Positions 16,539 to 35,631 of a stretch of 64,000 nucleotides of DNA are shown one piece after another. Source of the DNA: Armatimonadota bacterium (GTDB taxonomy: Bacteria > Armatimonadota > Fimbriimonadia > Fimbriimonadales > Fimbriimonadaceae). The number at the start of each line of letters is the position of its first letter. Positions within the stretch are counted from its first letter, which is position 1. The notes under the pieces were generated by a model. That model saw only the letters and a program-made list of their open reading frames with translations. It made no database searches and had not been told where the DNA came from. The DNA is taken from assembly GCA_023392285.1 (NCBI GenBank), contig JAEVZK010000091.1:5208-69207 (forward strand), given 5' to 3'. The translations under genes and the position numbers were made by a program.

Positions 16539-16898
16539 ATGGCACGAAAATCACCGGGTGGACTTCAAACCGAGTTTGAATTCACCCTGCCTCGCGGTTA
16601 CGTCGATCCGGAAGGCGTGCTCCACAAAAAGGGGCGCATGCGGCTGGCAACGGCGATGGATGAGATTGCTCCTCTGCGCGATCCTCGCGTAAGGGCAAAC
16701 CAGGCTTACCTGGTGATCATCCTTCTCGCCCGAGTCATCACGCAGCTCGGAACGGTCGACGTGATCGACACCGGGGTCATCGAAAATCTCTTTTCTGCCG
16801 ACCTGGCGTTTCTTCAGGACCTTTACCGCAAGATCAACGAGCTTGATCCAGAGGCGGAGATGGAACATGAGGAACAGCCGGCGATGGTGGGGGAATAG
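16539..16898 (+). CDS. Tail-assembly-chaperone-like protein (position equivalent to P2 gpE / lambda gpG)
   Basis: 119 aa, acidic C-terminus, immediately downstream of the tube gene. It ends ...ATG GTG GGG GAA TAG, with a G5 run just before the stop. The call rests mainly on synteny. Confidence 0.5.
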   Translation: MARKSPGGLQTEFEFTLPRGYVDPEGVLHKKGRMRLATAMDEIAPLRDPRVRANQAYLVIILLARVITQLGTVDVIDTGVIENLFSADLAFLQDLYRKINELDPEAEMEHEEQPAMVGE

Positions 16899-16918
16899 CC
16901 CGCTACCCCTCAGACGCC

Positions 16919-17056
16919 TTGTATGAGGAGGTAGCGTACATTGCCTACCATTTCCACTGGTCGATGGATGACATCCTTGCGATGGAACATCGAGAGCGGC
17001 ACAAGTGGGTCGAGCAGATTAGCAAGATCAATCGTCGTTTGAGCGGCGGAAGCTAA
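16919..17056 (+). CDS. DUF6760-like small ORF, possibly expressed as a -1 frameshift extension of 16539..16898
   Basis: The frame -1 relative to the upstream gene is open from 16871 to TAA 17054-17056. It reads GGGIARYPSDALYEEVAYIAYHFHWSMDDILAMEHRERHKWVEQISKINRRLSGGS. The only canonical in-frame start is TTG 16919, which would cut off the conserved-looking YPSDAL. It is not in the ORF track. Confidence 0.5.
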   Translation: MYEEVAYIAYHFHWSMDDILAMEHRERHKWVEQISKINRRLSGGS

Positions 17057-17153: not shown

Positions 17154-20100
17154 ATGGGTGTTCTCGACGCTCTCGAAGATGTCGGTTCTTCAATAATCGA
17201 CACGGCATCCTCCCTACCTAGCGCAGCCGCTGGGGCAGTTGGCCTCGCCACAGATGTCGCGTCGCGAGTCGGCACCTTTGTGGGAGAGGTGACCGGCGCA
17301 ACCGGCATTCCGGATGCAGTAAGGGGCGTCGTAGGAACAGTTCGAGAAACTGTAAACCACGCGGTCGATCGAGTCACGGATGCGGCGGCAAATCCTCGCC
17401 GGACGATCGCTCGGGCCGCCGATGCGGCGCTGAACGGTGCGTCGCGCGCGCTCGCGAACACGCAATCCTTTGCCGACCGCGTGCTCAGAGGGGCTGGAAA
17501 TTTAGCCAGCGGCGTTGCGGGGGGCATTACAAGCTTCACATCCACTGTGAGCGAGGGTGTGGCGACCGGAATCTCCACCGCAGTTGGCAGGGTCGGTGAT
17601 TTGGTGCTCAAGGGGACCTCGCTGGCTCAGGGAGCGATTTCAAAGGTGGTTGGGGGTGCCGGCTCACTTGCGAATCGCGCTATCGACTTCGGCGGCGAAC
17701 TCGGCACCAGAGCCATCGGTTTGGCGTCCCAAGTGCTGCAAAATGCCGCACACGGTATCGCAGATACGGTTTCTGACGGGATCAATGGCGCGGCAGGTCT
17801 GCTTGCTCGCAAGGCCTCCCAACTTGCGACGGCGGTCAGCCGGGTCGCGAGCGGCACCGCCAACCTCGTTGGACGAGTGGCAACCATGGCGGGCGCCGGC
17901 GTTTCGCGGATTGCCGATCGGATTGGATCAGTGGTCCAACATGCGGCCGGAAATATCGCGCCATACCTGCCGGGTCCCCTTGGCAATCTGGCATTGAGGG
18001 GAGCTGGGGTCGTGGGGCGCGTCACCCAAGGCGTCAGTTCATTCGCCCTTGGCGCAAGTTCCTTCGTTCGGGAGGAATCACAGGCAGCGGCGATCTTCGT
18101 TGCGACTCGCACAGGTGAGGCGAACTCCTTTGTGCAGAATGAAATTGCTTCCATCCGAGCGGAATTGGTGCAGCAGGCGGGGAACTTGGGTGACCTAGCC
18201 GCAAACGGATTCGAACACGTGGGGGAGCGATTGACGGCAATCGTGAGAGGCAAGGTTGCCCGGCTTCACGACCGAGTCAACACGATCTCCAATCGCATTC
18301 AGGATCGAGTGGCTCGCGCGAGTGACTTGATTCGGCAAACCGTCCCGGCAGTGTCTTCAGCGATCGGCCGGGCGGCCCATACAATCGCCTCGCACCTCAG
18401 CGAGCGAGTCGGACACGGTGTCGCGCTTGTGAGAGATCGAATTGGCGAGACGATTGAAGGAGGTCGGCGACTTGTGGGCCGGGGCGCAGATGCCGCGCGT
18501 GGAGCAATGGGCTTGGGGCGACGCATCTTTGATCGCGTGCTCGATGTCGGGTCTGCGGTTACCGAACGAGTTTCTGGATTCGTGGGCGGCGTTGTCTCTG
18601 GCGTTGGAGAGGGTGTCAGAGCGGGAGTCGATCGGATCACCTCCTTCACCATGTCGGCTCGCCCGAATGATGGAGATTTGACCGGGCCCTTTATGCCGGG
18701 CGAGCCGATGGTCGAACCTGATCAGGTGGGCTCGCTGCATGGGCGGAGCAACGCTGGAGCAAGAGAGGGCATGGTGTCGGGGGGAGCGAGCCTCTTCATC
18801 AATGGGATTGACACGAGTCTTGCCGACCACTACCGAGCGGCTCAGCGGCTTGCGAACGAAATTGGCGCCCCCGTGGTGGGCGTTTACAACGCAACTGCTG
18901 GCATGGGGAGCGACCTCTTACAATGCGCGGCCGACAAGTTTTTCGACCGGTCAGGTAATCCGGCGGTGGCGACCCTCACCCGTCTGATTCGAACCTATGG
19001 AGATGCACGTCAGCCCCGTGGGGGACTCAATATTTTTGCGCATTCCCAGGGAAGCCTGATCCTATCCGAGGCTTTGCGCCAGGCGCAGACGGCAGGCGCG
19101 GATATCAGTCACAACGACGTCACCACGTTTGGAAATGCCGCGTTCACCTATCCGGCGGGACCGACCTATCACCATTACATCCACGACGACGATGCGGTGT
19201 CGATGTCGGTGGGAACAGGCAGCTACATCAGCTACTTGATGAATCAAACGACGCTTGGGCGCATGGTGTCAGGATCTGCACTCGGACCGACTGCCGACGT
19301 CCAAGCGACGACGACAACCCTGCACCACGGGGGATCGATGATCGCTCCGCACGCCGTAAACGCGCCGGATGGGCACGATTATATCGGTGACCTGGCGGCT
19401 TTTCGAGCGGCGGAACGCAGTGGCCGCGCCACCCCTGCTCGCAACTATCAGAGGACCCAGGGCGCGGCTGGCTTTGCGATTGCGAGAGGCGTCGGAACCA
19501 TGGCTGCCGACGGAATCGCGTCCGGTTACGGCCGAGTAGACCGAGCGATCACAGCCATGCCCGACTTGCCGGTTGTTGGCAATCTTGGGATTTGGAGCGC
19601 GATCAATTCACGCTTGAGAGCGATTGGGGGCGCGGCGCTTTCGGCTGGTGAATCCTACGGCAGATCACGGGACGCAAGATACTCGGGCATGTCGACGATT
19701 CAGCGAAGCGGCGACGGACCTGAACCTGAGGCAGACGCTCGCGACGTCAAATCCCGCCTCGACCAGAGTGGCTCGATCGGCTTCGCGCCGGATTCGCGCG
19801 TGAACGATCAAGTGAGTGGTGTCCTTGGCCACGACATGAGCCAGGCGCGTCTCCACATTGATCCGGCTGCTCAGTCGATGGCGCGCGACTTGGGCGCGAA
19901 AGCTTTCACGATCGGTCGAGACGTCTACTTTGGGGCGGGGCAGTACCAGCCCAGCACCCCTTCTGGTATGGCTCTGATGGCACACGAGATGACGCACGTG
20001 GTGCAGCAGTCTTCTCCTGACCAGCAGACCCGCTTCTTTACCCAGCAAGGCGGAAACGAAATGGAGCAAGAGGCTCAACGCTCTGCGGAGATGGTGCTCG

Positions 20101-23100
20101 CCAATGCGGGAAATCGTCAGGGGCTGTTCGTGCAGAGGTACGTGAAAGACTACGAGTGCTCGACAGGATTGACCCAAACCGACCTGACCAGATTGGAACG
20201 TATTTCGCAGATGGCACTTGAGAGGGCGGAGGAAAAGCTCGGACCTCGAGCGCTTCGGGCCTTTCAGGTCGATGTGGACATTCACATCGACTTGCAGAAG
20301 ATGAACGATGTGCAGGCCGCGAATGTCTGGGCTCAAGCGATCGTCGAAGGCTTGCGCGACGCTACTTCGCTTCGCCCGACTACCACCACTTCGAAGGCGG
20401 TGCAGAAGTACAACGAGCCCCCGTTCTTCTTCATGCAAGCTCCGCGTTCCGATCACAGCGCTGCCCCTCATCCGGGGGACGATCGAGTGGTCGAGATGAA
20501 CATCACCGTCTTCGGCCGACATTACGGCCCGAGCGTCACCTATCCCGAGGCGTTGGAAGCGATGCGCCAAACCTATGCGCTGCTCAGCGGCCGCTGCGAA
20601 GCAGGTTGGGAGGGCCACGCGGACTTCATGCGCTTCCGCGACGATCACTGGATCGTCGGCGGGATTTCGGACACGTTGGGAGGGGTTTCGATGCCTCCGC
20701 TCGACATGTGGAACGAACCCGCGAACCATCTCAGAGAGGCTTACAACGCGATCGTGTTCACCCGCGATGTGGCAGCCGCGGCGACTCAGCTGAATCAGGC
20801 GGACGTCCTTATCAGACGCTGCGATCACCGCATGTACGAGTATCGCGAGGGGACGATCTCCGGTGCTGGGCGGGCGGTGACTGGCCTTGAAGCGGTGAAG
20901 GTCGGCTCGGCGGTCACCGTTGGCATCTTGTCGGCTGGAACTCTCAGCGCGGGTACGGCGCTCGTGGTGGGCGCTGGCTACACGGCCACTCAAACCATGG
21001 CTCAGCAGGGGATGGAGGTGCATCTTGGGCTGCGCGACCATATTGATTGGGCCGGCATCGGCTTTGATTTTGCGTTCAATCTGGTGATCGGCCGATTCAT
21101 GGGGAACATGTCGAACAACATTGCGGGTCGCCTCCTCCAGAATCCGGCTTTCCGGGGGATGGCGCGAGCGGCAGTAGTTCGCGTGGTGCAAGACGTCGTG
21201 ACGGGCCGCCTGTCGTCTGTCCTGTCGCTTACGGCGCGTCAGATTTTCGACCATGCTCGAAGCTCGCGAGAGGCGATGACTTGGGAGCAGTACGTGCATG
21301 CGATTGGTGAGCAGTTCACCAACCCCGCGCTTTACGTGCAGGACCTAGCTTCGGGAATGGGTGGTCGGGCGGCTGGCCGCCACTACCAATCCACGCATGG
21401 CCAAACGGTCGCCGCTGCGCCAGAAGGTGTGTCATCGACTGCTCAAGCAGTTCTCGATATTCCCGCGCCACAACCGCCGCAGGGACCACCTCCAACCGGA
21501 CAGACTCCGCGTCAGCTTCCGCCGCCCCGCGAGGGCGCAGCAACCCCAACCGAAGGCAACCCGCCGCCGACGACTGGCGCGCCATCGGAGCCCGCCCGAG
21601 TAAGTCAGCCCGAGTTGCCAGCCGTTGCCCCAACTGCTGAAACGATTGCAACTCCGGCCCATCCGGATGCTCCTGGGGCGACCCCTCATCCTGAAGCACC
21701 GGCGGCGACGGCTCCAGCCGAAACCGGCACGCCAGCCGAGACGGGCACAACTTCACGGCGGCAAACCGCTCCTCTGGAGAGGGTCACCGGCCAGCGCCGA
21801 GGGGAATCTGCGGCTCAGAGGCGAGCACGGGTGGCTGACGAGGTGGCGGCACGAAGAACGGCAGAAGGCGAACCCACGCCACAAGAACGCCAGGCAACTG
21901 GAGAAGAACAAGCTGCTCGGCCGGCAGCTGAAACCGCGGCCGCGACGCAACGGCATCTCGATGTGGTCAATGCTGGCGGAGAAGGGGCGGTCAGTGCGGC
22001 GGAGCAACTGATTCGCCGGGTCGGTTCATTCCGGCAGCTGCGCCAGATGGCAACCGGCGAGAGCCCGCAGCTGACACCTGCAGGTGTACGGGCCGTCAAT
22101 GAGGCTCGAGCGCAGATTCAGCGCCGAATCCAAAGCGAGATCGCTCAGCAGTTCCCGAACATCGAATTTCTTGCCCCAGGAACGACCGGCTTCGCCAGCG
22201 ACACAGACGTGACGGTAAGGCCCCGCGATTTCTCGCAGCGCAGCACCCCTGAGCAAATTGCGGAAGGAGTTCGACAAGCGGGTGAGGCGGTCCAGGAGGC
22301 AAATCGCAGAGCCCGAGAAGCGGCAGGGGGTCGAGAGCCCGACGAGTCTCTCGATACGAACTATTACAGTTGGACCGGAGCCGACGCTCCCATCCAGACG
22401 CCGCGAGCCTCTGAACAGGTCGTGGGCAATGCTCGCACGGTCGCGAGCCTTGCTGAGCAGCACCAGGCAATGACCCCCGAGATATGGTCCCAGTATCGTC
22501 AGCAGATGCTTCGCGAGGCAGGGGCGGGTCGCCCGCGCTCGGAGCAGGTGGGAGAAGCGCAGGCAAGATTCGAGGCGGAAACGGTCGCTCACCTCGAGGC
22601 TCAGCTCAATGCGGCTGAGCAAATGTCGACTCGGCTTCGGGCAGAGCGCGAGGCAACTGCCTCCCGGTTGAGAGCCGCCGATCCGACGATTACGGAAGGC
22701 GGAGCCCAAATGCGAGCGCGCGAGCAGCTTGCGGCGCAGTATCGACAGCGCTTGATCGAAGCTCTAGGCAGAAACCCGGTAAATCATGCCGAAGTTGCGT
22801 CGTTGCAAGCTCAGATCACAATGATCGAGCCGGGTGCCTACGCCAGCCGGGCCGGTGTCGCGGACGTTGTCGCAAATCAGCAGACCGCAATGCCTCGCGG
22901 TGAAGTGACCTTTGGGCCGAACGGGGAGAGAAGGGGAACTGGGGACTTTGCGGTTAGACGACAGCAGCTTGCGTCGGGCGAGGTGCTAGAGTCGACGGAA
23001 GGTGCTCATCGCGTGATGGAGCTTGATCCGGTGACCGGTCTGCGTGACCTGGCCGACAGCGCTGGCAGCAGCCTTGCCCAGTTCGAGGCACACGCGGAGC

Positions 23101-23576
23101 ATCCACCAACGAATACCGCTGAGGCTCTCGATCTGATCAAGAATACGATCAAATACTCGAGCCGAATGGCTCATGCGGATCAGGCAACGAGAGCTGGCTC
23201 ACGAAGTACACCGGGCGAATTGACCCGAGGCTACAGCCGTGACCAAGGGCCGGTCGCCGCTCTGGAAGGCATGGCGGGAGGCGAAGTCTCGACCATCGAT
23301 GGAAGGCCACGCGCAGAGGTGCTCTCGGCGCTGGAGCAAGGCGGCGCGGCACGAGATGCAGCCCTTCGCTCCGTCGCGGCAGAGAGCGGACGACGCGGTT
23401 TCGGGAATTCCTTGGAGAGCTTGGCGTCAGCTTATGCGAATTCGAGACTGCCTTATGCTCGCGGGGTCGCCGCCTCGATTCGGGTTCGCGCAACCACGCA
23501 GGAAGCAGGCATGGTGGGCCTGTCTCCGACGATCGTCGCACCTTCTTTGGAGAGTACGCCACCGCCGACACGATGA
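17154..23576 (+). CDS. 2140-aa multidomain CIS-associated protein, a putative effector and/or tape-measure fusion. Parts: N-terminal Gly/Ala-rich helical repeats, alpha/beta-hydrolase (GxSxG), DUF4157 HExxH module, Pro-rich linker, charged helical C-terminal region
   Basis: Nucleophile elbow FAHSQGS (Ser codon 19044-19046), preceded by SLFINGIDTS and VVGVYNATAG. DUF4157-like VLGHDMSQARLHIDPAAQSMARDLGAKAFTIGRDVYFG...MALMAHEMTHVVQQ (HEMTH at 19983-19997). Pro-rich segment ~21460-21740. Confidence 0.8.
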   Translation: MGVLDALEDVGSSIIDTASSLPSAAAGAVGLATDVASRVGTFVGEVTGATGIPDAVRGVVGTVRETVNHAVDRVTDAAANPRRTIARAADAALNGASRALANTQSFADRVLRGAGNLASGVAGGITSFTSTVSEGVATGISTAVGRVGDLVLKGTSLAQGAISKVVGGAGSLANRAIDFGGELGTRAIGLASQVLQNAAHGIADTVSDGINGAAGLLARKASQLATAVSRVASGTANLVGRVATMAGAGVSRIADRIGSVVQHAAGNIAPYLPGPLGNLALRGAGVVGRVTQGVSSFALGASSFVREESQAAAIFVATRTGEANSFVQNEIASIRAELVQQAGNLGDLAANGFEHVGERLTAIVRGKVARLHDRVNTISNRIQDRVARASDLIRQTVPAVSSAIGRAAHTIASHLSERVGHGVALVRDRIGETIEGGRRLVGRGADAARGAMGLGRRIFDRVLDVGSAVTERVSGFVGGVVSGVGEGVRAGVDRITSFTMSARPNDGDLTGPFMPGEPMVEPDQVGSLHGRSNAGAREGMVSGGASLFINGIDTSLADHYRAAQRLANEIGAPVVGVYNATAGMGSDLLQCAADKFFDRSGNPAVATLTRLIRTYGDARQPRGGLNIFAHSQGSLILSEALRQAQTAGADISHNDVTTFGNAAFTYPAGPTYHHYIHDDDAVSMSVGTGSYISYLMNQTTLGRMVSGSALGPTADVQATTTTLHHGGSMIAPHAVNAPDGHDYIGDLAAFRAAERSGRATPARNYQRTQGAAGFAIARGVGTMAADGIASGYGRVDRAITAMPDLPVVGNLGIWSAINSRLRAIGGAALSAGESYGRSRDARYSGMSTIQRSGDGPEPEADARDVKSRLDQSGSIGFAPDSRVNDQVSGVLGHDMSQARLHIDPAAQSMARDLGAKAFTIGRDVYFGAGQYQPSTPSGMALMAHEMTHVVQQSSPDQQTRFFTQQGGNEMEQEAQRSAEMVLANAGNRQGLFVQRYVKDYECSTGLTQTDLTRLERISQMALERAEEKLGPRALRAFQVDVDIHIDLQKMNDVQAANVWAQAIVEGLRDATSLRPTTTTSKAVQKYNEPPFFFMQAPRSDHSAAPHPGDDRVVEMNITVFGRHYGPSVTYPEALEAMRQTYALLSGRCEAGWEGHADFMRFRDDHWIVGGISDTLGGVSMPPLDMWNEPANHLREAYNAIVFTRDVAAAATQLNQADVLIRRCDHRMYEYREGTISGAGRAVTGLEAVKVGSAVTVGILSAGTLSAGTALVVGAGYTATQTMAQQGMEVHLGLRDHIDWAGIGFDFAFNLVIGRFMGNMSNNIAGRLLQNPAFRGMARAAVVRVVQDVVTGRLSSVLSLTARQIFDHARSSREAMTWEQYVHAIGEQFTNPALYVQDLASGMGGRAAGRHYQSTHGQTVAAAPEGVSSTAQAVLDIPAPQPPQGPPPTGQTPRQLPPPREGAATPTEGNPPPTTGAPSEPARVSQPELPAVAPTAETIATPAHPDAPGATPHPEAPAATAPAETGTPAETGTTSRRQTAPLERVTGQRRGESAAQRRARVADEVAARRTAEGEPTPQERQATGEEQAARPAAETAAATQRHLDVVNAGGEGAVSAAEQLIRRVGSFRQLRQMATGESPQLTPAGVRAVNEARAQIQRRIQSEIAQQFPNIEFLAPGTTGFASDTDVTVRPRDFSQRSTPEQIAEGVRQAGEAVQEANRRAREAAGGREPDESLDTNYYSWTGADAPIQTPRASEQVVGNARTVASLAEQHQAMTPEIWSQYRQQMLREAGAGRPRSEQVGEAQARFEAETVAHLEAQLNAAEQMSTRLRAEREATASRLRAADPTITEGGAQMRAREQLAAQYRQRLIEALGRNPVNHAEVASLQAQITMIEPGAYASRAGVADVVANQQTAMPRGEVTFGPNGERRGTGDFAVRRQQLASGEVLESTEGAHRVMELDPVTGLRDLADSAGSSLAQFEAHAEHPPTNTAEALDLIKNTIKYSSRMAHADQATRAGSRSTPGELTRGYSRDQGPVAALEGMAGGEVSTIDGRPRAEVLSALEQGGAARDAALRSVAAESGRRGFGNSLESLASAYANSRLPYARGVAASIRVRATTQEAGMVGLSPTIVAPSLESTPPPTR

Positions 23577-23612: not shown

Positions 23613-23912
23613 ATGCCAGCTAACATCAACGTTCTGCGTTGCCGCATCCGAGTGACCAATGTGCCGCAGGGGTCGATCGAGCATCAGACGGCGAATGTCG
23701 AGCGTCCAAGCCTGCATTTTGTTCAGCCGGGTGGAAGCGAGACGTCGCATGGAGATGCGCGTCCTTCGCAGACGGCGACGGAGGACCGTAACGCGGCCAC
23801 GAATCGGGAGAGTATTTCGCCCCGAAGCGCCGATCCAAAGCAAATTGCGGATCGAGTTTATGAGTTAATGGTGAGAGAAGTGAAATTGGGAAGAGCGAGA
23901 GGCGAGAGATAA
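23613..23912 (+). CDS. Small CIS-locus protein (99 aa) sharing a C-terminal motif with the 1164-aa protein
   Basis: GGGAG RBS upstream; the stop lies 1 nt before the second tube gene. C-terminus PKQIADRVYELMVREVKLGRARGER parallels AHEINMLANEVWTLLRRKLTFEAERMGRR at the end of 24382..27876. Confidence 0.5.
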   Translation: MPANINVLRCRIRVTNVPQGSIEHQTANVERPSLHFVQPGGSETSHGDARPSQTATEDRNAATNRESISPRSADPKQIADRVYELMVREVKLGRARGER

Positions 23913-24381: not shown

Positions 24382-27300
24382 ATGACCGACCAACGCGCTA
24401 AAGACCTTGCTTCCATCGAGCCACCAAGCTCGATGAAGAAGATTGTCAGCTTTGCCGAGCAACTCAGCTTCGGCCAAGATGCGCTGTTTGCAGGCACCGA
24501 ACTTCCCAAGCCGCACATTGGGCAGAACGGGGTCAACGCGGGCAAACTGGCCCGGCAAATGTCGGTGAATCCGTACTCCATCTTCCCCGGAGTTGGCTCA
24601 GAAGGGCTGGATTCGGTGATGTCGCGCCAGATGGTTCGAACGCGAGACATCCAAGACTTCACGCGCTGGCTCATGAAATTTGACGCTAAGCGTTCCGAAC
24701 TAGTCGTTTACGACACCCCAGAGCAAATCTTCTTCCAGCACGCCACCCCAGAGCTTGCTGAGCAGTTCATGTACCAGCACAATCCTGAGATCGAGCAAAT
24801 CATCCGGGAGGGGCGGCGGCGGCGCACGGTTACTCAAGAGATTGAGACCGAAGAAATTGAAGTTCGGCGAGTCGAGACACGACGCAAGCGAATCAAGACC
24901 GAGCAGGTGGAAACCTTGGAGGCCGAAGAGGAATCGGCTAAAGCGCAGCAGGCGCACGCCCGCTCGGCGAAGCAGGGTGACGGAGCGGAGTCGGCTCAAG
25001 CGGAATCGAATCAAGGAGGACAGAGTCCTGCGGGTGCGGCCACACGCCGGAATATGCTGCGCCGCGACGCAGGAGCGGAACCTTCTTCGGATGCAAACCG
25101 CTATTGGCGCGATTCCGGACCGCGCATGGACGTTGCAAAGACGCCGCCACCGACTGCGGCGCAAATGCAAGCCGAACAGATCACATTCGGTCAGGTGCTG
25201 ACCGCGACCAACCGCAATCTGCTCGTGTCCAACTTCGGCATGTCTAGCTTGGCGGGAGGAATTATTCGCGGGCGAGCGGATGCCGCAGCTTCTTTTCAAG
25301 CGCAAAGTGCGGCAAGCAGCGCGGTCCAGAGTTCGCCGGTTGCGGGTACCTACATGCCGCAAGGCAGCGGCTCTTTTGCTGGCCAAGTCCCATCCCACGC
25401 CTATCCCTCGGGTGTCTACCCATCGGGGGGAATGGCTCAGAGCCATTTCCAGGCACCGGAAGTGTCGATTACTTCTCAACCGCTCGGCACTTTTAGACCT
25501 TCTGGCGCACAGAGCTTGCGAGTTAATGGGGTCGAGGTGACGTCCGATTGGGACGGCGGGCCGGGCATGGTGCCGCCCCCTGGCATGTACACGGGCCCCG
25601 AGTCAGCTGCGATTCCATCCGCTAGAGCGGCCGCAATTCAAGAGGCAGCGGTTGGTAGTCGCTCGATGCGTGGTGCAGCCGTCGCGGGAGCGGCGCTGCT
25701 GGGGCCGATGGCGTTTGCCGCTCTTCCGGCAATGGGTGGAGGTCTCTATCCCGTCGGAGGTCAATCGGTAGCGATTGCCTCGATGACTCCGTTGCAGCTT
25801 GCTGCAATGCAAGGACGAGGCTCCTCTTATGTCGGAGTGCCCGGCTATGCGGGGGCGGTTTCGGAAAGCATGGCGATGAATTTGGCTTCACGAGCCAACG
25901 CCTCGGCCGGGTTGGGAGGAGTGCCCATGCTGATCGGCGACGGCTCGGTCATGCCTGCCGGCCAGGTGGAGCGTAAGGATGTCATGGGAATGGGCTTCGT
26001 AGGTGGAGCTCATCCTTCAGCAATCGCAAGGGGCATTGGGAGTTTCGAACCAGGAGTTCAGACCTCAATTCCAAATAGTCCACTGATGGGGCAGATCACT
26101 CTGATCGCTCCGCCCATGGAAGTTGCATCAGCCGAGGCCGAGCGCGCTGGAACGGCGGTATCGTTCGATGTCAAGACGCTTGCCAAGGGCGCTGGTGCCT
26201 TGGATGCGACCAGCCTCACCATGCTCAAATCGGCGATGCCACAAGGGCTTCAGGCTATTTATCCGGCCCTTCCGCAAAGCCAACTTGGACCTCACGCGGT
26301 CAACATGAAGTTGGCACCTTCGCTGCTCGGCCAGATACTCAATGAAGGCTATGGTGGTCGAGCCGCGCAGATGACTCCGCATTTCGCCGATGCCGCATCG
26401 AAAGTTTCGCTCTCATCTCCGGTGGCAATGCCTATGGAAGCCAGCATCGTTCCGGTAACGAGCCGCCCCGTTGGGGATCAAGCCGGATTACTGGGCGCTG
26501 CGGGCGGTACCGAAAAGGGCTTGGGACAGATTGGGGCAGGGGGCGCATCTCGCGGAGGCGCGCTCGACTTCCTCGGCATGCCGGTCCGACTGGCCCCAAG
26601 TCTCGCCGGCAGTCCAGAGATGTCTGCGGCAGCTGAAGCCAGAAAGGCGATGCCTCCAGGCGCGGCGGCCGTCATGCGTCCAAACGAGTTTGCACCTCTC
26701 CGGTCAAAGCTCTTCCCTGCGTTCGGTTCAGTGAAGGCGGAGCCAGACCAAAAGGCTTGGGAGAAGGCTGCGCCTAGCTATGGAATGAGGAGTGCGCGTC
26801 CGGAGAATCTTCTTTCGCCTGAAGCGCGCCTGAAGCCACCTGCGGGCGGCGCTTCAGTGCCACAAATGCATACGGTGTCGCCGACTGCTACTGCCAAAGC
26901 TTTGGCGGGTGCCGCAGCGGTATCTTCGATTGCCGATGCCGCCATGCCTTCAGGGTTACACGCACTCTCCAGTTCAGCGATGGCTGGGGGAGCTTTGGGA
27001 GCGTTTGCGGGCGGAGGCTTGGCGGCGATGGGCCAGGCAGGTCCGCTTGGGATGATTTCAGGCCTGAGAGGAAGTCGAGGCGGAGTTCCAGCAGTGCCGT
27101 CCTTGGGATCGGTAATGAGCTTGGCGCGACCTAACCCATTGATGGCGGCGGGATTCGCCGGCCGTTTCGCTGGTGGAATGGCTGCTCCAGCGATGAGCTT
27201 TGGCTCGCCAACCCAGCCTGGAATGAGTCCATCTGTGATGAGCCAAAGAGTGGCGTCTCGTTGGTCACCCGCCGCGCCCATGGGCAAGGGGCTGGGCTTA

Positions 27301-27876
27301 CCCAGCTTGAGTTCTACCGTGCCTGCCACTCCCCATTCGCCGGGAATACCATCGGTCAAGACTCACACGAAATCGAGCAATGGCCCGGCTTCTCCCCAAA
27401 TGCCGCGCATGCGGCCAGGCATTCCCGCCACGCCAAGCATGACCCAGAGCCTGAGCAGTTCAGCTCCGGCAATGACCGACTCTCCCATTCCGACGACCGC
27501 CGGAGCGCACCCTGGGATCAGCAATCTGGCCGCGCCTGCCCCTGCGACGCTTCCAAAAATTGGAGGAGAGTCAGCCTCCGTAAGGGAGCGACCGAAGTCG
27601 AGCATTCTGGCCCATCAAGCGCCTGCAATGCCCATCGCGGCATCTGTTGCCGCCGCAAAACCCACTGCCAGCAGCACCTTCGTGCAGCGAGCGCAGATGA
27701 ACGAGGGCATCGCAACTGCGCCCAATTCATCCATCCAAGAGCCGGAACATAGCTCCAGCCGAACGACCAAAGATCCCGGTCAGGCGGCTCACGAAATCAA
27801 CATGCTCGCCAATGAAGTGTGGACGCTTCTGCGGCGCAAGCTCACCTTCGAGGCGGAGCGAATGGGCCGCCGCTAA
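24382..27876 (+). CDS. 1164-aa low-complexity (Ala/Gly/Ser/Pro/Met-rich) protein; tape-measure (Afp14-like) candidate
   Basis: Structured, charged N-terminal ~200 aa, then ~900 aa of low-complexity sequence, then a conserved-looking C-terminal helix. It sits directly upstream of the LysM hub gene. The function is inferred from position only. Confidence 0.45.
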   Translation: MTDQRAKDLASIEPPSSMKKIVSFAEQLSFGQDALFAGTELPKPHIGQNGVNAGKLARQMSVNPYSIFPGVGSEGLDSVMSRQMVRTRDIQDFTRWLMKFDAKRSELVVYDTPEQIFFQHATPELAEQFMYQHNPEIEQIIREGRRRRTVTQEIETEEIEVRRVETRRKRIKTEQVETLEAEEESAKAQQAHARSAKQGDGAESAQAESNQGGQSPAGAATRRNMLRRDAGAEPSSDANRYWRDSGPRMDVAKTPPPTAAQMQAEQITFGQVLTATNRNLLVSNFGMSSLAGGIIRGRADAAASFQAQSAASSAVQSSPVAGTYMPQGSGSFAGQVPSHAYPSGVYPSGGMAQSHFQAPEVSITSQPLGTFRPSGAQSLRVNGVEVTSDWDGGPGMVPPPGMYTGPESAAIPSARAAAIQEAAVGSRSMRGAAVAGAALLGPMAFAALPAMGGGLYPVGGQSVAIASMTPLQLAAMQGRGSSYVGVPGYAGAVSESMAMNLASRANASAGLGGVPMLIGDGSVMPAGQVERKDVMGMGFVGGAHPSAIARGIGSFEPGVQTSIPNSPLMGQITLIAPPMEVASAEAERAGTAVSFDVKTLAKGAGALDATSLTMLKSAMPQGLQAIYPALPQSQLGPHAVNMKLAPSLLGQILNEGYGGRAAQMTPHFADAASKVSLSSPVAMPMEASIVPVTSRPVGDQAGLLGAAGGTEKGLGQIGAGGASRGGALDFLGMPVRLAPSLAGSPEMSAAAEARKAMPPGAAAVMRPNEFAPLRSKLFPAFGSVKAEPDQKAWEKAAPSYGMRSARPENLLSPEARLKPPAGGASVPQMHTVSPTATAKALAGAAAVSSIADAAMPSGLHALSSSAMAGGALGAFAGGGLAAMGQAGPLGMISGLRGSRGGVPAVPSLGSVMSLARPNPLMAAGFAGRFAGGMAAPAMSFGSPTQPGMSPSVMSQRVASRWSPAAPMGKGLGLPSLSSTVPATPHSPGIPSVKTHTKSSNGPASPQMPRMRPGIPATPSMTQSLSSSAPAMTDSPIPTTAGAHPGISNLAAPAPATLPKIGGESASVRERPKSSILAHQAPAMPIAASVAAAKPTASSTFVQRAQMNEGIATAPNSSIQEPEHSSSRTTKDPGQAAHEINMLANEVWTLLRRKLTFEAERMGRR

Positions 27877-27894: not shown

Positions 27895-28545
27895 ATGAGC
27901 CTCACTAAAGCTACGATCACCAACCTCGGGAACAACAGTCAATTTGAAGTGCTGTTCAACCCGACCGAATACACGATTGCAAAGACGAACTCGTGGCAAG
28001 CCCGCCCGGTCGTCGGCCGCAACGTGCCAAGGCTGGACTTTACGGGTGGTGGTTCACGAACCCTTACGCTCGAACTGTTCCTAGACGTGATGGATCGAAG
28101 CGGGGAGACCGACGTTCGTCCGCATGTCGATAAGCTTTGGGAGCTTACGATGATCGACGAGGCGCACCGCAATTCGTCGACCGATCGTTCTCGTCCCCCG
28201 CTGTGCCTGTTCCAATGGGGCGGCAACTGGCACTTCAAGGCGGCGGTGACGAGCCTTTCCGTTCGCTACACGCTGTTCAACGAGGACGGCGTTCCGATTC
28301 GAGCCGTGGCCACTTGCAGCTTCGAAGAAGCGGAAGACGAGAATGAGCAGCCGGGCACGAATCCGACGTCCTATGCCGAAGCCGGCATGCGTCGCCGCGA
28401 AGTGCGTCCGCGTGACACCCTGGCGCTCATTTCCTATGAGGAGTACGGTGATTCTTCGAAATGGAGAATGATTGCCGAAGCCAATTCGATTCATGATCCT
28501 CGAACGCTCACGCCAGGGCAGATTTTAGCCATTCCGGCACTCTAA
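27895..28545 (+). CDS. Tube-initiator/hub adaptor protein with C-terminal LysM domain (Afp7/Pvc7-like; P2 gpX-like LysM)
   Basis: 216 aa. N-terminus FEVLFNPTEYTIAKTNSW...RLDFTGGGSRTLTLELFLD. C-terminal LysM RPRDTLALISYEEYGDSSKWRMIAEANSIHDPRTLTPGQILAIP. Confidence 0.8.
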   Translation: MSLTKATITNLGNNSQFEVLFNPTEYTIAKTNSWQARPVVGRNVPRLDFTGGGSRTLTLELFLDVMDRSGETDVRPHVDKLWELTMIDEAHRNSSTDRSRPPLCLFQWGGNWHFKAAVTSLSVRYTLFNEDGVPIRAVATCSFEEAEDENEQPGTNPTSYAEAGMRRREVRPRDTLALISYEEYGDSSKWRMIAEANSIHDPRTLTPGQILAIPAL

Positions 28546-28549
28546 CTCA

Positions 28550-30403
28550 ATGAACATCAGCAGTGTCCACAATTCAGGAATTCCGTCGCCTTCTGCGGAT
28601 CGAGATACGAGCGTTAATTCGCACTTAGCTCAATGCTTGATCAAGGTTGACGGGACGAATCTGTCGCCGGACATCATGAATGACGTCATCGAGGTGACGG
28701 TAGAGAACAGCATGTTCATGCCCGACTCCTGCCTCATCCGGGTAAATGACACGAAGGTCACCCACGTCGATGCCAGCCAATTCTTCATCGGGAAAGCGGT
28801 CGAAGTCTCTATGGGGGGAAACACCAATGAAATGACCAACATTTTCAAAGGTGAGATCGTGGGGCTGGATGTCGATTTCGCGGCTCATGGGATGTCTTCC
28901 TTTACGGTCCGCTGCTTGAACAAGGCTCACCGTCTGCACCGGGACCGCAAGCGGCGAACGTTCCTACAAGTCAAAGCCTCCGACATCGTGTTGAAAGTGG
29001 CGTCTGATCACGGGCTGTCGTCGGAGGCGGACAGCGTCGGCCCGGTTCACGAGTATGTCTGTCAAAACAATCAAACGGACTGGGAATTCTTACGCGAGAT
29101 TGCGGATCGAAACGACTGCCGACTGTATGTCACTGACAATAAACTGAAGTTCAAGAAAGTGGATCAGCACCAAAACGAGGTTCCTATTCAATGGGGAGAA
29201 GAACTTCGATCATTTCGTCCACGGATCACTTCTGCAGGTCAGATCAACGAGGCTGTCGTCAAGGGTTGGGATCCCGGTCAGAAGAAAGAAATTGTGGCGA
29301 CCAAGACCCAGGTGAATGGGGACCAGCAAACCGGTATCGGCAAATCCGGTGGCGACACTTCAAAGGCTGCTTTTGGTCCGTCGAAACAAGTCGTAGTCGA
29401 CCGTCCAATCAAAACGCCGGCTGAGGCTGAGCAGATGGCTCAGTCGATCATTGATACCCGGCAAACTCGCTTCGTTGAAGCAGACGGGCTATGTACGGGA
29501 AATCCGAAAATTATGTCCGGCACCAGGGTCAATGTCGCGAAAGTCGGTCAGCGACTCACTGGAAAGTACAACGTGACGGCGACCGTTCACACGTATACGC
29601 CGGCTGAAGGCTATACGACTCAATTCATCTGCAGCGGCAAAGATCCGAACTCTCTTCTTGGGCTGATCGATGGCGAACGGCGCGAAGAGAGCAACATCGG
29701 CGGCAACATTGTGATCGGAATCGTCACCGACAACAAAGATCCGGAGAGCCAAGGGCGCATGAAGGTCAAGTTCCCCTGGTTCGAAGACAATTTGGAGAGC
29801 ACATGGTGCCGGCTCGTCTCACCGATGGCAGGCAAAGATCGAGGATTCCTCTTTCTTCCAGAAGTGGACGATGAAGTGCTCGTTGCCTTTGAGCATGGGG
29901 ATATTACACGGCCGTTCGTGCTGGGTGCCCTCTGGAACGGAAAGGACTCGCCGCCCCGAAAGAGCGACGAAGTGGTGCCAAGCGGAGGCGTCGATCGACG
30001 CCTGATCAAGACCCGCGTCGGGCACATCATCATGCTGGACGACAGCAATGACAAGTGCCAAGTATTTGTCCAAACCAAAGCCGGCCACATCATCAATCTC
30101 GACGACGCGAACTCGAAGATCGAGGTGATCGACAAAACGGGCAGCAACAAGATGACGATCGATTCGAACGCCAACTCGATTAAGTTGGAGTGTGCGGGAA
30201 ATTATGATGTGGACGCGAAAGGCAAAGTGACGATCAAAGGGCAGCAGGGGATCCTGCTCGACACGCCGCAAAACTTGGAAGGCAAGGGCATGAAGGTCGC
30301 GTTCGAGGCGCAGACGGCCGCTGAACTGAAGGGAACCGCGTCGGTTACCGTTCAGTCGTCCGGCCAGACGTCGATTAAGGGAACCATGGTGATGATCAAC
30401 TAA
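28550..30403 (+). CDS. VgrG-like spike protein (gpD/gp27-gp5 fusion; Afp8-like)
   Basis: 617 aa. gp5 OB/C-terminal region GRMKVKFPWFEDNLESTWCRLVSPMAGKDRGFLFLPEVDDEVLVAFEHGDITRPFVLGALWNG, followed by beta-helix repeats. Confidence 0.9.
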   Translation: MNISSVHNSGIPSPSADRDTSVNSHLAQCLIKVDGTNLSPDIMNDVIEVTVENSMFMPDSCLIRVNDTKVTHVDASQFFIGKAVEVSMGGNTNEMTNIFKGEIVGLDVDFAAHGMSSFTVRCLNKAHRLHRDRKRRTFLQVKASDIVLKVASDHGLSSEADSVGPVHEYVCQNNQTDWEFLREIADRNDCRLYVTDNKLKFKKVDQHQNEVPIQWGEELRSFRPRITSAGQINEAVVKGWDPGQKKEIVATKTQVNGDQQTGIGKSGGDTSKAAFGPSKQVVVDRPIKTPAEAEQMAQSIIDTRQTRFVEADGLCTGNPKIMSGTRVNVAKVGQRLTGKYNVTATVHTYTPAEGYTTQFICSGKDPNSLLGLIDGERREESNIGGNIVIGIVTDNKDPESQGRMKVKFPWFEDNLESTWCRLVSPMAGKDRGFLFLPEVDDEVLVAFEHGDITRPFVLGALWNGKDSPPRKSDEVVPSGGVDRRLIKTRVGHIIMLDDSNDKCQVFVQTKAGHIINLDDANSKIEVIDKTGSNKMTIDSNANSIKLECAGNYDVDAKGKVTIKGQQGILLDTPQNLEGKGMKVAFEAQTAAELKGTASVTVQSSGQTSIKGTMVMIN

Positions 30404-30708
30404 TGGGAAAACCAGCAGCAAGACTTGGAGATAGCTGTGCCCATGGAGGCACGATTGTGGCAGGTTGTCCGACCGTGCTCATTGGCGGACAACCCGCCGC
30501 TCGCTTGGGCGACATGCACGTTTGTCCGATGTCGACGCCAGCGACGCCACCGATTCCGCACGTAGGAGGGCCGATCTTGCCGCCTTGCTCACCAACGGTG
30601 ATCATTGGCGGGATGCCTGCGGCTAGAGTTGGTGATATGGCGCTGTGTCCTCCTAGTCCGCCGGATTCGATCGTAGCAGGCTGTCCAACCGTGCTTATTG
30701 GCCCATAA
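30403..30708 (+). CDS. PAAR-domain spike-tip protein (Afp10-like)
   Basis: 101 aa with three PAAR(L/V)GD repeats. The start overlaps the vgrG stop (TAATG). Confidence 0.9.
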   Translation: MGKPAARLGDSCAHGGTIVAGCPTVLIGGQPAARLGDMHVCPMSTPATPPIPHVGGPILPPCSPTVIIGGMPAARVGDMALCPPSPPDSIVAGCPTVLIGP

Positions 30709-33329: not shown

Positions 33330-33333
33330 TTCC

Positions 33334-35622: not shown

Positions 35623-35631
35623 GGAAGATTA

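Follow-up and report, generated by a model that had tools for sequence, protein, structure and literature searches.

A protein of 2140 amino acids, encoded in the 64,000-nucleotide stretch of Armatimonadota DNA analyzed here (the window), is probably a polymorphic effector that derives from a tape measure and is loaded into the lumen of a phage-tail-like contractile injection system (CIS) lacking an ATPase, and as such a variant of the Tme class. An earlier note had taken it for a chimeric protein. Its multi-module make-up stands, but it is no one-off: judged by sequence comparison, it belongs to a conserved polymorphic family that joins a tape-measure-like stretch, a lipase/esterase-type enzyme, a zinc-protease-like domain and a swappable toxin end. 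The reading frame is genuine, with 2140 open codons from ATG to stop, and all motifs quoted in that note were recovered at the coordinates given there, namely SLFINGIDTS (aa 546-555), VVGVYNATAG (aa 574-583), NIFAHSQGS (aa 626-634) and HEMTH (aa 944-948), the predicted serine codon (TCC, 19044-19046) being exactly that of Ser 631. The start MGVLDALEDVG agrees with the N-termini of homologues, the complete architecture is also present in a 2060-aa protein (37% identity overall, rising to 39% in the best local alignment), and about 36 further large representatives have it as well, which rules out a chance reading frame or an assembly chimera. The features of the locus are compiled in Table 1.

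Table 1. Features of the 2140-aa protein and of the surrounding gene cluster, in positions of the window.
Feature	Position	Strand	Basis
Contractile sheath, 616 aa	14085..15935	+	Phage_sheath_1C E 6e-18, Phage_sheath_1 E 1e-16
Tube, gp19/Cis1-like, 144 aa	16010..16444	+	Phage_T4_gp19 E 2.9e-39
Tail assembly chaperone, lambda G / Mu gp41-like, 119 aa	16539..16898	+	phrog_508 E 1.8e-6
DUF6760 / P2 gpE-like frame, -1 relative to chaperone	16871..17056	+	DUF6760 E 7.3e-16, Phage_P2_GpE E 0.0066
2140-aa protein in tape-measure slot, eCIS_core-containing polymorphic cargo/effector	17154..23576	+	ORF, Pfam, homologue comparison
Ala/Gly/Val-rich helical, hendecad-periodic tape-measure-like module, aa 1-505	17154..18668	+	PHROG, periodicity, conserved N-terminal motif
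DGDLTGPF motif, aa 506-513, directly upstream of hydrolase	18669..18692	+	Alignment A6, motif positions in 36 proteins
Alpha/beta-hydrolase domain, aa 540-760	18771..19433	+	Homologue conservation, Pfam matches of members, AF2, Foldseek
eCIS_core (DUF4157), aa 881-954, HEMTH at 19983-19997	19794..20015	+	PF13699 E 7.6e-26
Conserved DUF4157-module extension, aa 955-1090	20016..20423	+	Alignment A6, blastp
Variable "mid" module, aa 1091-1430	20424..21443	+	blastp, hydropathy
Pro/Ala/Thr-rich disordered linker, aa 1431-1595	21444..21938	+	Composition
Variable C-terminal domain, aa 1596-2140 (545 aa)	21939..23573	+	Alignment A4, AF2
99-aa conserved protein, candidate spike "plug" (Cis6/Afp6/Alg6-like)	23613..23912	+	Orthologues, layout
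Second tube-family protein, 153 aa	23914..24375	+	Phage_T4_gp19 E 2e-39
1164-aa protein, rival tape-measure candidate	24382..27876	+	Position, conserved ends
CIS_tube + LysM hub/tube-initiator, Afp7/Cis7-like	27895..28545	+	CIS_tube E 5.7e-31, LysM E 8e-4, Phage_P2_GpU E 1.3e-3 (weak)
VgrG-like spike	28550..30403	+	Phage_GPD + Phage_base_V
PAAR baseplate gene	30403-30708	+	Profile match
gp25 baseplate gene	30792-31196	+	Profile match
Baseplate_J gene	31200-33329	+	Profile match
Tail_P2_I baseplate gene	33298-34458	+	Profile match

The gene occupies the classical tape-measure slot, right after the tail-assembly chaperone and the gpE/DUF6760 frame. The window was compared with five further contigs (L001, L002, L003, L005 and L006), all of which share the order tube, chaperone, giant protein, ~100-aa protein and second tube protein, followed, where the contig extends, by a ~1000-aa protein, the LysM hub and VgrG. 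Chaperone orthologues in L001 and L003 are very similar as judged by eye, the L001 copy weakly matching Gp41_Mu, and a gene of 116-119 aa holds the same position in L005 and L006. The DUF6760 frame, open from 16871, overlaps the 3' end of the chaperone gene by 28 nt at GTG GGG GAA TAG; its peptide is 75-87% identical in the five contigs and begins with Leu or Ile, never with Met. It is probably a -1 frameshift extension of the chaperone, of the G/GT or E/E+E' type. The 99-aa protein, built of an N-terminal strand, a long linker and a C-terminal helix, fits the description of Alg6 (PMC8894135) and by this analogy is a candidate spike plug; orthologues occur in L001 (with a weak DUF5908 match, E 0.052) and L003, and genes of similar size in L005, L006 and a JGI contig. 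The 153-aa protein is probably the tube initiator (Cis5-like). Within the 64 kb, DnaA is the sole real P-loop ATPase, a pyridine-nucleotide oxidoreductase reading frame carrying an incidental motif match, and no AAA match was obtained among the cluster genes. With no AAA+ loading ATPase encoded in the window, loading is probably chaperone-driven.

The Gly/Ala/Val-rich helical start of about 500 aa, described before from the letters, is borne out by the composition of the first 505 residues (Ala 17%, Gly 14%, Val 12%, Pro just 1.6%) and by a strong hydrophobicity period of 3.67 residues (11/3) across aa 1-250. Five PHROG tape-measure families (1272, 58, 4200, 1535 and 167) match the N-terminal 520 aa with E values of 4e-10 to 9e-5, and no functional class besides tape measure appeared in this search at E < 0.01. 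HMM scores can be inflated by repeat-rich helical sequence; as a composition control, the equally Ala/Gly-rich 1164-aa protein matches none of the PHROG tape-measure families. Weak matches of the module are of the apolipoprotein, perilipin and alpha-synuclein type. The 2140-aa protein matched no Pfam tape-measure model and no CIS_TMP model, and a tblastn search of 50,697 phage records with the N-terminus returned nothing, so that the resemblance of the first ~505 aa to phage tape measures is one at profile level only. The N-terminal motif MG(L/I)LDA is conserved among homologues, in which the helical module ranges from ~290 to 760 aa, and DGDLTGPF is almost invariant among the large ones (A6 consensus DGxLTGPFYP). 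The earlier argument from the slot is strengthened by the chaperone match to phrog_508, the -1 DUF6760 frame, the five PHROG families and the published Tme precedent.

The missing BLAST-level likeness to phage tape measures would also suit a pure oversized cargo, in which the giant N-terminus is a loading or packing sequence of merely compositional likeness, and the true tape measure is the 1164-aa protein, held in the hub through its conserved C-terminal helix. The genes of the LysM hub and VgrG come directly after that of the 1164-aa protein. Both ends of this protein are conserved in its counterparts from L001 (1010 aa) and L003 (883 aa), the corresponding slot in L005 contains a gene of 1157 aa, and the C-terminal helix (NMLANEVWTLLRRKL..ERMGRR) is similar to the one in the plug-like 99-aa protein. 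Known DUF4157 cargo moreover has the layout NTD-DUF4157-CTD with an N-terminal loading signal. In this context one should recall that canonical tape measures dock in the hub through a conserved C-terminus, whereas that of the giant protein is variable, which counts against a tape-measure-derived effector. On the other hand, the 1164-aa protein has no match in Pfam, NCBIfam, PHROG or PDB, tape-measure and CIS_TMP models included. Behind a small N-terminal domain, some 850 Ala/Gly/Ser/Pro-rich residues are disordered rather than helical, given 10% Pro and 13% Gly, and among close loci the protein measures anywhere from 883 to 1164 aa. The chaperone/frameshift pair, which serves the tape measure in phages, sits directly 5' of the giant gene and not of the 1164-aa gene, and a loading ATPase is absent from the window. 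A pure cargo is considered unlikely.

Both enzymatic domains proposed earlier hold up. For the alpha/beta hydrolase, the assignment is established by family-wide conservation, transitive Pfam matches and a fold search, and holds at the level of family, triad and fold. The site comprises an oxyanion NG (550-551), the nucleophile elbow A-H-S631-Q-G, Asp 680 (19191-19193) and His 733 (19350-19352); among 667 representative homologues, N550, G551, N579, D587, S631 and D680 are invariant, and H630, Q632, G633 and H733 are at least 90% conserved. Taken alone, the sequence stays below the Pfam cut-off of 20.5 bits for both Abhydrolase_8 (18.2) and DUF900 (16.5), while family members match DUF676, Abhydrolase_6, Palm_thioest, Abhydrolase_8, DUF900, PE-PPE and Tle3. 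The AF2 model of the core reaches a pLDDT of 80-94, and every one of its best 50 Foldseek matches in the PDB is an alpha/beta hydrolase. Alignments and model point to a new, unnamed alpha/beta-hydrolase family without a Pfam model of its own and with a conserved Ser631-Asp680-His733 triad. The DUF4157 block ending in MAHEMTHVVQQ is a strong match to PF13699 (eCIS_core, formerly DUF4157; 90.5 bits, cut-off 22), and its HExxH is invariant in the 25 homologues of alignment A6. Glu 971 (20064-20066) lies 23 residues past His 948; a Glu at +23-24 is invariant in the 25 homologues, within a motif ME.EAQ whose invariant E and A were assigned by eye to E971 and A974, and it is a candidate third zinc ligand. 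Among the large homologues, 33 show a blastp match to the extension of this domain.

Domain-by-domain blastp indicates that about 36 large homologue clusters retain the N-terminal ~1090 aa and differ in their C-terminal halves; the homologue in L003 departs past aa ~1090. The helical module, alpha/beta hydrolase, DUF4157 HExxH...E and the 130-aa extension make up, by alignment, a constant ~1090-aa module, both enzymes lying outside the variable warhead. In a Pfam scan of 25 homologues, eCIS_core was present in all, the other domains being Muramidase, Pesticin, AHH, Endonuclea_NS_2, RelA_SpoT and NLPC_P60. The exchangeable half begins here with a hairpin-bearing mid module and continues through a Pro-rich linker into a DxD domain. 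The mid module, with a conserved YEYREGTISGA and a hairpin predicted from hydropathy at aa 1253-1274 (nt 20910-20975) and 1299-1317, is common only to P0007, P0001/P0022 and P0023, weakly to P0013 and P0010, and has no match in Pfam, NCBIfam or PHROG. The linker, previously placed at ~21460-21740, was found with slightly wider limits (Pro 22%, Ala 18%, Thr 14% over aa 1431-1560); its sequence is not conserved, yet the 2060-aa homologue has one. The final region had been described as a charged helical C-terminus, of which the region stands and the description does not, as it is a discrete conserved domain with invariant Asp 1683/Asp 1685 (SDxD, 22200-22208) and a conserved LDTN (Asp 1734) in alignment A4. 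AF2 (pLDDT 77, pTM 0.75) places strands at the GT, DxD and LDTN positions. The domain has no match in Pfam and no Foldseek neighbor in PDB or BFVD; a profile of its core meets MNT nucleotidyltransferase (E 0.041) and TUT7 (E 0.26) in the PDB at the catalytic motif, and on these matches of E 0.04 to 0.3 it is a candidate nucleotidyltransferase-like toxin.

These C-termini bear on two further readings. The giant protein might be the sole bona fide tape measure, a length ruler with embedded enzymes whose primary role is structural and whose C-terminus is accessory. Slot, chaperones and PHROG matches agree with this, its gene is the largest reading frame of the cluster, and PMC13277306 cites examples of enzymatic motifs embedded in phage tape measures (its references 44 and 45). 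A ruler sits poorly with a helical module of such variable length, or with a tape-measure-like share of just ~500 of 2140 residues; since the relatives' C-terminal halves hold bona fide toxin domains, the C-terminus, at any rate, serves first of all as an effector, and the sole ruler appears somewhat doubtful. It is very improbable, finally, that the protein is not injected and acts in the producer cell, e.g. as membrane anchor, firing adaptor or lysis/release factor using hairpin, esterase and peptidase on the cell's own envelope. The presence of a hydrophobic hairpin would suit this, some Streptomyces CIS do act inside the producer (PMC11126660, PMC13277306), and the cluster encodes NlpC/P60 and caspase-like peptidases. 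Nor is an immunity gene evident beside the toxin end, a point that also counts against the effector reading favored here. Yet polymorphic C-termini (nucleases, muramidases and similar) are typical of delivered toxins, the slot and chaperone indicate the lumen, and DUF4157 proteins localized so far are in the tube lumen or spike-bound.

The fusion of tape measure and effector, suggested before, is supported by the slot and by the PHROG, hydrolase and DUF4157 matches, packaging being a proposal. For such a tape-measure-derived effector, the helical N-terminal module would be held by the G/GT-like chaperone pair as the tube polymerizes around it, loading being co-assembly as with a phage tape measure and not Afp15-type ATPase threading. 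Sheath contraction would expel a largely unfolded chain behind the spike, the target envelope could be made passable to the chain by its hydrophobic segments and the hydrolase of lipase/esterase type, and the DUF4157 metallopeptidase might cut the polyprotein, releasing the enzyme at the C-terminus, which may here be a toxin of nucleotidyltransferase type. The processing step is a proposal only, because loading in AlgoCIS does not depend on DUF4157 and the toxicity of Cgo1 is independent of the HExxH motifs; the DUF4157 cargo proteins Cgo1 and Cgo2 are located in the tube lumen (PMC8894135, bioRxiv 10.64898/2026.05.27.728243). The giant protein thus looks like a tape measure turned toxin carrier. 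The published precedent is Tme ("tape-measure-related effector") of Streptomyces davawensis, which purifies together with VgrG and the tube initiator (PMC11126660), and to whose class the 2140-aa protein, known here from its sequence, is likened as a variant.

The open reading frame of the giant protein is genuine (2140 open codons), and the landmarks quoted in the earlier note were all found where they had been placed: SLFINGIDTS (aa 546-555), VVGVYNATAG (aa 574-583), NIFAHSQGS (aa 626-634, with Ser631 encoded at 19044-19046), HEMTH (aa 944-948, nt 19983-19997), and the Pro-rich stretch (aa 1431-1595). The ATG can be accepted as the true start, because the homologues open with the same MG(L/I)LDAxxDxG motif. 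The protein is the longest product of the cluster, the runner-up having 1164 aa. It contains just 15 Lys among its 2140 residues, with Arg used instead, and the G+C content of its gene is 61-63%, compared with 54-58% in most of the remaining window. A word-index homology search with the full sequence returned just two matches, a PDB sequence search with the whole protein gave nothing significant, and an NCBIfam search gave nothing relevant.

In the N-terminal module (aa 1-505), Ala accounts for 17%, Gly for 14% and Val for 12% of the residues but Pro for just 1.6%, and the hydrophobicity of aa 1-250 shows a sharp 3.67-residue (11/3, hendecad) period. Residues 12-495 match five PHROG tape-measure families (E 4e-10, 5e-8, 6e-7, 8e-7 and 9e-5); the similarly Ala/Gly-rich 1164-aa protein matches none of them, which argues that these matches are not purely a compositional artefact. 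No Pfam tape-measure model matched the giant protein, and phage genomes searched by tblastn with the N-terminus contained nothing similar, so that the tape-measure resemblance of this module must be regarded as remote. The module is followed by the sequence DGDLTGPF (aa 506-513), which is nearly invariant among the homologues.

The giant gene lies within a contractile injection system (CIS) cluster, with genes for sheath, tube, LysM hub, VgrG, PAAR, gp25, J and I arranged around this DUF4157 protein. Directly upstream are a tail assembly chaperone and a DUF6760/gpE-like frame, which is unannotated here and was overlooked by gene callers in five other contigs as well. This frame covers the last 28 nt of the chaperone gene in the -1 frame, at GTG GGG GAA TAG, and its peptide, without a Met start, is 75-87% identical across the five other contigs. 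A programmed -1 frameshift of the G/GT or E/E+E' type probably occurs at G GGG GAA TAG; the predicted junction peptide would read ...MVG-GIARYPSDALYEEV... across 16871-16898. A chaperone with an overlapping -1 DUF6760/GpE frame is the signature of a G/GT or E/E+E' pair, and the giant gene thus occupies the classical tape-measure slot.

Features of the injection-system cluster and its borders (window coordinates)
Feature	Position	Strand	Remark
256-aa ORF upstream of cluster	10148-10918	+	weak rhomboid-protease (GlpG) NCBIfam match, E 3e-6, far under cut-off
695-aa ORF upstream of sheath	11699-13786		cap-like position
Sheath	14085-15935		gene order of CIS cluster
Tube	16010-16444		gene order of CIS cluster
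119-aa protein, tail assembly chaperone	16539-16898	+	phrog_508 E 1.8e-6
DUF6760/gpE-like frame	16871-17056	+	DUF6760 E 7e-16; weak P2 GpE match E 0.0066
Giant protein, 2140 aa	17154-23576	+	open for 2140 codons
99-aa protein	23613-23912	+	gene order of CIS cluster
Second tube-family protein	23914-24375		gene order of CIS cluster
1164-aa protein	24382-27876	+	gene order of CIS cluster
CIS_tube+LysM hub	27895-28545		gene order of CIS cluster
VgrG	28550-30403		gene order of CIS cluster
PAAR, gp25, J, I	30403-34458		gene order of CIS cluster
DUF4159 protein	34462-35622	+	after P2_I-like baseplate gene
842-aa protein	35632-38160	+	without matches
775-aa protein	38091-40418	+	IPT/TIG domain
Caspase-like C14 peptidase	40456-42192	+	distal cluster end
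LysM-SH3-NlpC/P60 cell-wall hydrolase	42189-44315	+	distal cluster end
Caspase-like C14 peptidase	44312-46030	+	distal cluster end
TPR protein	46060-47205	+	distal cluster end

The cluster is embedded in ordinary chromosomal DNA. A prophage was ruled out by the housekeeping flanks, i.e. genes for SdhA, ribosomal protein L25, UbiB and DnaA, and neither capsid nor terminase appeared among the genes scanned. The three products of 34462-40418 are candidates for fibre or receptor-binding parts, and the two C14 peptidases, the NlpC/P60 hydrolase and the TPR protein at the distal end may have a role in particle release or regulation.

Two proteins are candidates for setting the length of the particle. 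An alternative, which we consider unlikely, holds that the 1164-aa protein is the real tape measure and the giant protein pure cargo. The 1164-aa protein has a conserved N-terminal domain of about 150 aa and a Glu/Arg-rich helix; then come about 850 disordered residues, rich in Ala, Gly, Ser, Pro and Met, and finally a C-terminal helix with strong conservation (NMLANEVWTLLRRKL..ERMGRR). Its orthologues range from 883 to 1164 aa. That helix, together with a gene adjoining the hub gene, would suit a ruler, and it resembles the C-terminal helix of the 99-aa protein; furthermore, the C-terminus of the giant protein is variable, whereas canonical tape measures have a conserved docking C-terminus. 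On the other hand, the 1164-aa protein has no similarity to tape measures and found no match in any library searched, the PDB sequence search included, its 850-residue stretch (10% Pro, 13% Gly) has to be regarded as disordered, and the chaperones are located upstream of the giant gene and not of the 1164-aa gene. In the 99-aa protein itself, a long loop of low complexity joins a strand-like motif at the N-terminus to a C-terminal helix (IADRVYELMVREV). This layout would fit the description of the Alg6/Afp6 spike plug, and the orthologue of the protein in the related contig L001 gave a weak DUF5908 match. Its gene was also considered as an immunity gene; this was ruled out, as it is conserved beside different toxins.

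The alpha/beta-hydrolase block with a GxSxG-type serine that the earlier note had proposed is borne out by conserved Ser-Asp-His residues, the AlphaFold (AF2) fold and Foldseek matches, all of which agree. Taken alone, the segment (aa 540-760) remains below the Pfam cut-off of 20.5 bits with Abhydrolase_8 (18.2 bits) and DUF900 (16.5 bits). A word-index search with it returned no match, though the representative homologue P0001 shares 10-residue identities, and PDB sequence searches with the segment and with 4- and 60-sequence hydrolase profiles gave nothing significant, the best hint being a lipase nucleophile elbow (E 0.48). Word-index searches were nearly blind to the family, which was opened up by exhaustive HMMER search: 667 representative relatives were found. 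About 35 of them are proteins of 1200-2750 aa in which the relative position of the domain is unchanged; the others are stand-alone proteins of 200-500 aa. Family members match DUF676, Abhydrolase_6, Palm_thioest, Abhydrolase_8 (9.7e-6), DUF900, PE-PPE, Tle3 and others; these Pfam matches are weak and spread over 11 different clan families, essentially all of them alpha/beta-hydrolase.

Within the 60-sequence hydrolase alignment (A3), N550, G551, N579, D587, S631 and D680 are invariant, and H630, Q632, G633 and H733 are at least 90% conserved. D680 and H733 are likewise both at least 90% conserved in the alignment of 25 large homologues (A6), giving the order Ser-Asp-His. The AF2 model has a core pLDDT of 80-94 and places Ser631 directly after a strand (106-110 of the model), in a nucleophile elbow A-H-S631-Q-G whose serine is invariant in 60/60 and 25/25 sequences. 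The 50 best Foldseek matches in the PDB are all alpha/beta hydrolases, namely esterases, lipases, cutinases or thioesterases (E 3e-4 to 3e-3, probability about 1, TM 0.3-0.56). Conservation, Pfam clan matches and fold together establish the Ser-Asp-His hydrolase as real, and it represents an undescribed family in the alpha/beta-hydrolase fold superfamily (Pfam clan CL0028), one for which Pfam has no dedicated model. A stand-alone copy with a canonical GESQG elbow was seen in a Myxococcota MAG contig (L004, JANQQN010000234.1, 9272-10705), outside any injection-system context and with a histidine kinase, a sigma factor and a signal peptidase among its neighbours; most of the 667 representatives are small proteins of this kind. 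Between hydrolase and DUF4157 (window 19500-19560, aa ~785-800), there is a short motif, (G/A)Y(G/N)xxDxxhR, of which the giant protein has one or two copies and some homologues, such as P0015 and P0023, have about eight in a tandem-like row.

The presence of a DUF4157 block, also claimed earlier, was confirmed by a match to PF13699 (now renamed eCIS_core) at aa 881-954, which scored 90.5 bits where the cut-off is 22 (E 7.6e-26), and HExxH is intact. The motif (H944-E945-M-T-H948) and a glutamate 23 residues past His948 (E971) are invariant in 25 aligned homologues. This arrangement is consistent with a thermolysin-like (gluzincin) zinc site, a reading that draws on established metalloprotease motifs. 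Along with DUF4157, a 130-aa extension that reaches to aa 1090 has been conserved. A PDB sequence search with the DUF4157 region gave nothing significant; tblastn of the hydrolase-DUF4157 part against plasmids gave DUF4157 matches only and no combination of the two, and no paper linking DUF4157 with an alpha/beta hydrolase in such an arrangement was found in the literature searched.

In this context one should note that DUF4157 is a marker of eCIS toxins and is usually found N-terminal to the toxin, at times with linkers of more than 1000 aa (PMC8213781), that the tube lumen of AlgoCIS holds DUF4157 cargo (PMC8894135), and that ATPase-dependent loading is directed by the N-terminal region of the cargo and not by DUF4157 (preprint 10.64898/2026.05.27.728243). 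DUF4157, the most specific marker of eCIS toxins, is dispensable for ATPase-driven loading in published experiments. Its context here is fixed: it follows a tape-measure-like segment and a conserved esterase and precedes exchangeable toxins, and the clusters concerned lack a loading ATPase. This setting leads to a concrete hypothesis: chaperone-mediated co-assembly, followed by proteolytic release.

Beyond aa 1090 lies the mid module (aa 1091-1430), which matched nothing in the databases and carries a hydrophobic hairpin at aa 1253-1317, and the Pro/Ala/Thr-rich linker (aa 1431-1595) leads to a C-terminal domain of 545 aa (aa 1596-2140), predicted to be largely helical with a small sheet (pLDDT 77, pTM 0.75). 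Asp1683 and Asp1685 (SDxD) are invariant even among the most distant relatives in the alignment of this domain (A4). The motifs G1676-T, S-D1683-x-D1685 and LD1734TN fall on predicted strands 75-78, 89-95 and 140-144, with a G[ST]-to-D spacing of just 7 residues. The domain has no match in Pfam, and Foldseek with its model (pLDDT 77) gave nothing below E 0.87 in the PDB or below E 0.05 in BFVD. With a core profile of the sheet region, weak matches to the nucleotidyltransferases MNT (5yep; E 0.041) and TUT7 (E 0.26) were obtained, at their catalytic motif. The domain was not filed as a nucleotidyltransferase, since no fold neighbour was found in PDB or BFVD, and a putative Pol-beta-type identity may serve as a lead only. 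A word-index search with the C-terminal profile yielded nothing but a 288-aa fragment, found in JGI sample 3300056388, whose sequence is identical to the window.

The contig collection has no entry for the exact protein. In five fetched contigs, however, a giant eCIS_core protein is encoded within the same arrangement of genes. Two metagenomic contigs (L001 and L002) encode the same 2060-aa protein, with 37% overall identity to the giant protein; the Armatimonadota MAG L003, the closest named genome with a homologue, encodes 2458 aa, L005 the closest relative (2191 aa), and L006 a protein of 2397 aa. Domain-by-domain blastp located the hydrolase in about 36 large representatives, nearly all of which also have DUF4157 and the extension. 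The short hydrolase-DUF4157 linker could be detected in 13, the mid module in just 4-6, and the C-terminal domain in seven plus two distant relatives. The L003 protein diverges completely past window residue ~1090. All 25 homologues subjected to a Pfam scan contain eCIS_core, and individual ones carry Muramidase, Pesticin, AHH nuclease, Endonuclea_NS_2, RelA_SpoT, NlpC/P60 or PG_binding_1; hydrophobic, transmembrane-like segments occur somewhere in almost all members. As far as sequence comparison goes, a constant delivery part with exchangeable warheads is the pattern of polymorphic toxins, which would make hydrolase and DUF4157 part of the delivery module rather than of the warhead.

With respect to loading, no AAA+ ATPase of the Afp15/Pvc15 type was found within the 64-kb window, and the cluster genes gave no AAA Pfam match; DnaA is the sole bona fide P-loop ATPase, and one further ORF, a pyridine-nucleotide oxidoreductase, has an incidental Walker-A motif match. 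Along these lines, the called genes of L001 gave no AAA Pfam match either. A cap gene of the Pvc16_N/Afp16 type was not detected in the window. L001 and L003 carry a Pvc16-like gene upstream of the sheath, and tblastn of these caps against the window gave no match. The 695-aa ORF in the cap-like position was considered as a Pvc16/Afp16 cap and rejected, having no similarity to the L001 or L003 caps; it has no database match whatever.

The explanation that we favor, and hold to be somewhat probable, is that the giant protein is a tape-measure-derived lumen cargo, whether or not it also acts as a ruler. The chaperone pair would load the N-terminal helical module as the tube grows round it, and contraction would then expel the chain; hydrolase and hydrophobic segments could help to breach the target envelope, and the DUF4157 peptidase would free the C-terminal enzyme. 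This proposal rests on the slot with its chaperone, the tape-measure profile matches, the fold and triad of the hydrolase, an intact HExxH...E site, the polymorphism of the C-termini, and the window without an ATPase. A more far-reaching reading, which seems doubtful to us at present, is that of an ATPase-less lineage in which the role of delivery vehicle has passed to the tape measure itself. Its constant module, composed of hendecad helices, a dedicated alpha/beta hydrolase and the DUF4157 gluzincin, would act as a self-contained membrane-breaching and self-processing translocator, loaded by G/GT-type chaperones and equipped with interchangeable warheads, including the 545-aa DxD toxin. If true, DUF4157 would be given a concrete job, the in-cis maturation of a tape-measure polyprotein, a second and ATPase-free CIS loading route would exist, and the DxD warhead would be a toxin with a fold so far absent from the PDB. 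With the lumen-cargo reading, nothing is overturned; the cluster offers a natural system for testing the function of DUF4157 and how a tape measure turned toxin carrier. Two uncharacterized domain families have been exposed, the alpha/beta hydrolase (667 representatives) and the DxD domain without a structural neighbor, and the constant 1090-aa carrier with its swappable C-termini is a natural template for cargo engineering.

Several known systems invite comparison. With Afp14/Pvc14/Alg14 the giant protein shares the presumed lumen location and the helical N-terminal module; unlike these, it does not match CIS_TMP (PF19268), and its gene position differs (Afp14 follows the fibre gene). Afp14-type systems have a separate ATPase (Afp15) and cap (Afp16), neither of which was detected in the window. 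Owing to the lack of a profile match, the protein is not considered a tape measure of the Afp14/CIS_TMP type. Cgo1 and Cgo2 of AlgoCIS, shown to reside in the tube lumen (Xu et al. 2022, PMC8894135; PROCIS preprint 10.64898/2026.05.27.728243), likewise have an N-terminal region followed by DUF4157 and a variable C-terminal domain. However, the loading signal of these proteins (498 and 1228 aa) is a short disordered stretch at the N-terminus, and they depend on the AAA+ protein Alg15 and are encoded outside the tape-measure slot, in contrast to the 880 aa preceding DUF4157 here, which include a folded enzyme. As no ATPase gene occurs in the window, the giant protein is not considered an ATPase-loaded cargo of the AlgoCIS type.

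Phage tape measures with G/GT (lambda) or E/E+E' (P2) chaperones share with the present cluster the order sheath, tube, chaperone, frameshifted chaperone (predicted here), long helical protein and hub, and with the giant protein the PHROG profile matches and hydrophobic segments; some even carry embedded enzymatic domains. In contrast to them, the giant protein matches no Pfam tape-measure model, BLAST showed nothing similar to it among phage records, its tape-measure-like part makes up just one quarter of the sequence, and its C-terminus is variable instead of a conserved hub-docking end. Polymorphic toxins of the Rhs, CdiA and MafB type (PMC4436062) resemble it in having a constant N-terminal trafficking part, a membrane-associated pre-toxin module and exchangeable C-terminal toxins, AHH nuclease among others, but they are delivered by T5SS, T6SS or T7SS, whereas a contractile tail is the candidate here, and no cognate immunity gene is adjacent. 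The Tle lipases of the T6SS and the eCIS toxin EAT17, with its PGAP1-like domain (PMC11297309), also represent a Ser-Asp-His alpha/beta-hydrolase fold in a contractile machine, and members of the hydrolase family weakly match Tle3 and DUF676 (PGAP1-like clan). Unlike Tle and EAT17, the hydrolase of the giant protein resides in the constant delivery module upstream of DUF4157 and belongs to a separate family below Pfam thresholds.

The closest described system, by comparison with its published description, is the CIS of Streptomyces davawensis with Tme (BN159_7576), a tape-measure-related effector of 2247 aa which contains DUF4157 and has the spike and the tube initiator as binding partners (PMC11126660; Nagakubo et al. 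2024). In Tme, DUF4157 resides in the N-terminal region, no alpha/beta hydrolase was reported, and the C-terminus is an EndA-like nuclease; in the giant protein, DUF4157 is central (aa 881-954 of 2140), behind 505 aa of tape-measure-like repeats and the hydrolase, and the C-terminal DxD domain is unrelated. The giant gene lies upstream of the hub and spike genes, with three genes between (99 aa, second tube protein, 1164 aa). Both proteins are products of the largest ORF of their CIS cluster (Tme about 2200 aa), upstream of baseplate genes, and both combine DUF4157, hydrophobic or transmembrane segments, long disordered stretches and remote tape-measure similarity with an enzymatic C-terminal domain (putatively enzymatic in the giant protein), in a cluster type spread over distant phyla. 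The recently proposed link from tape measure to effector is extended beyond Streptomyces, to at least 36 sequence clusters.
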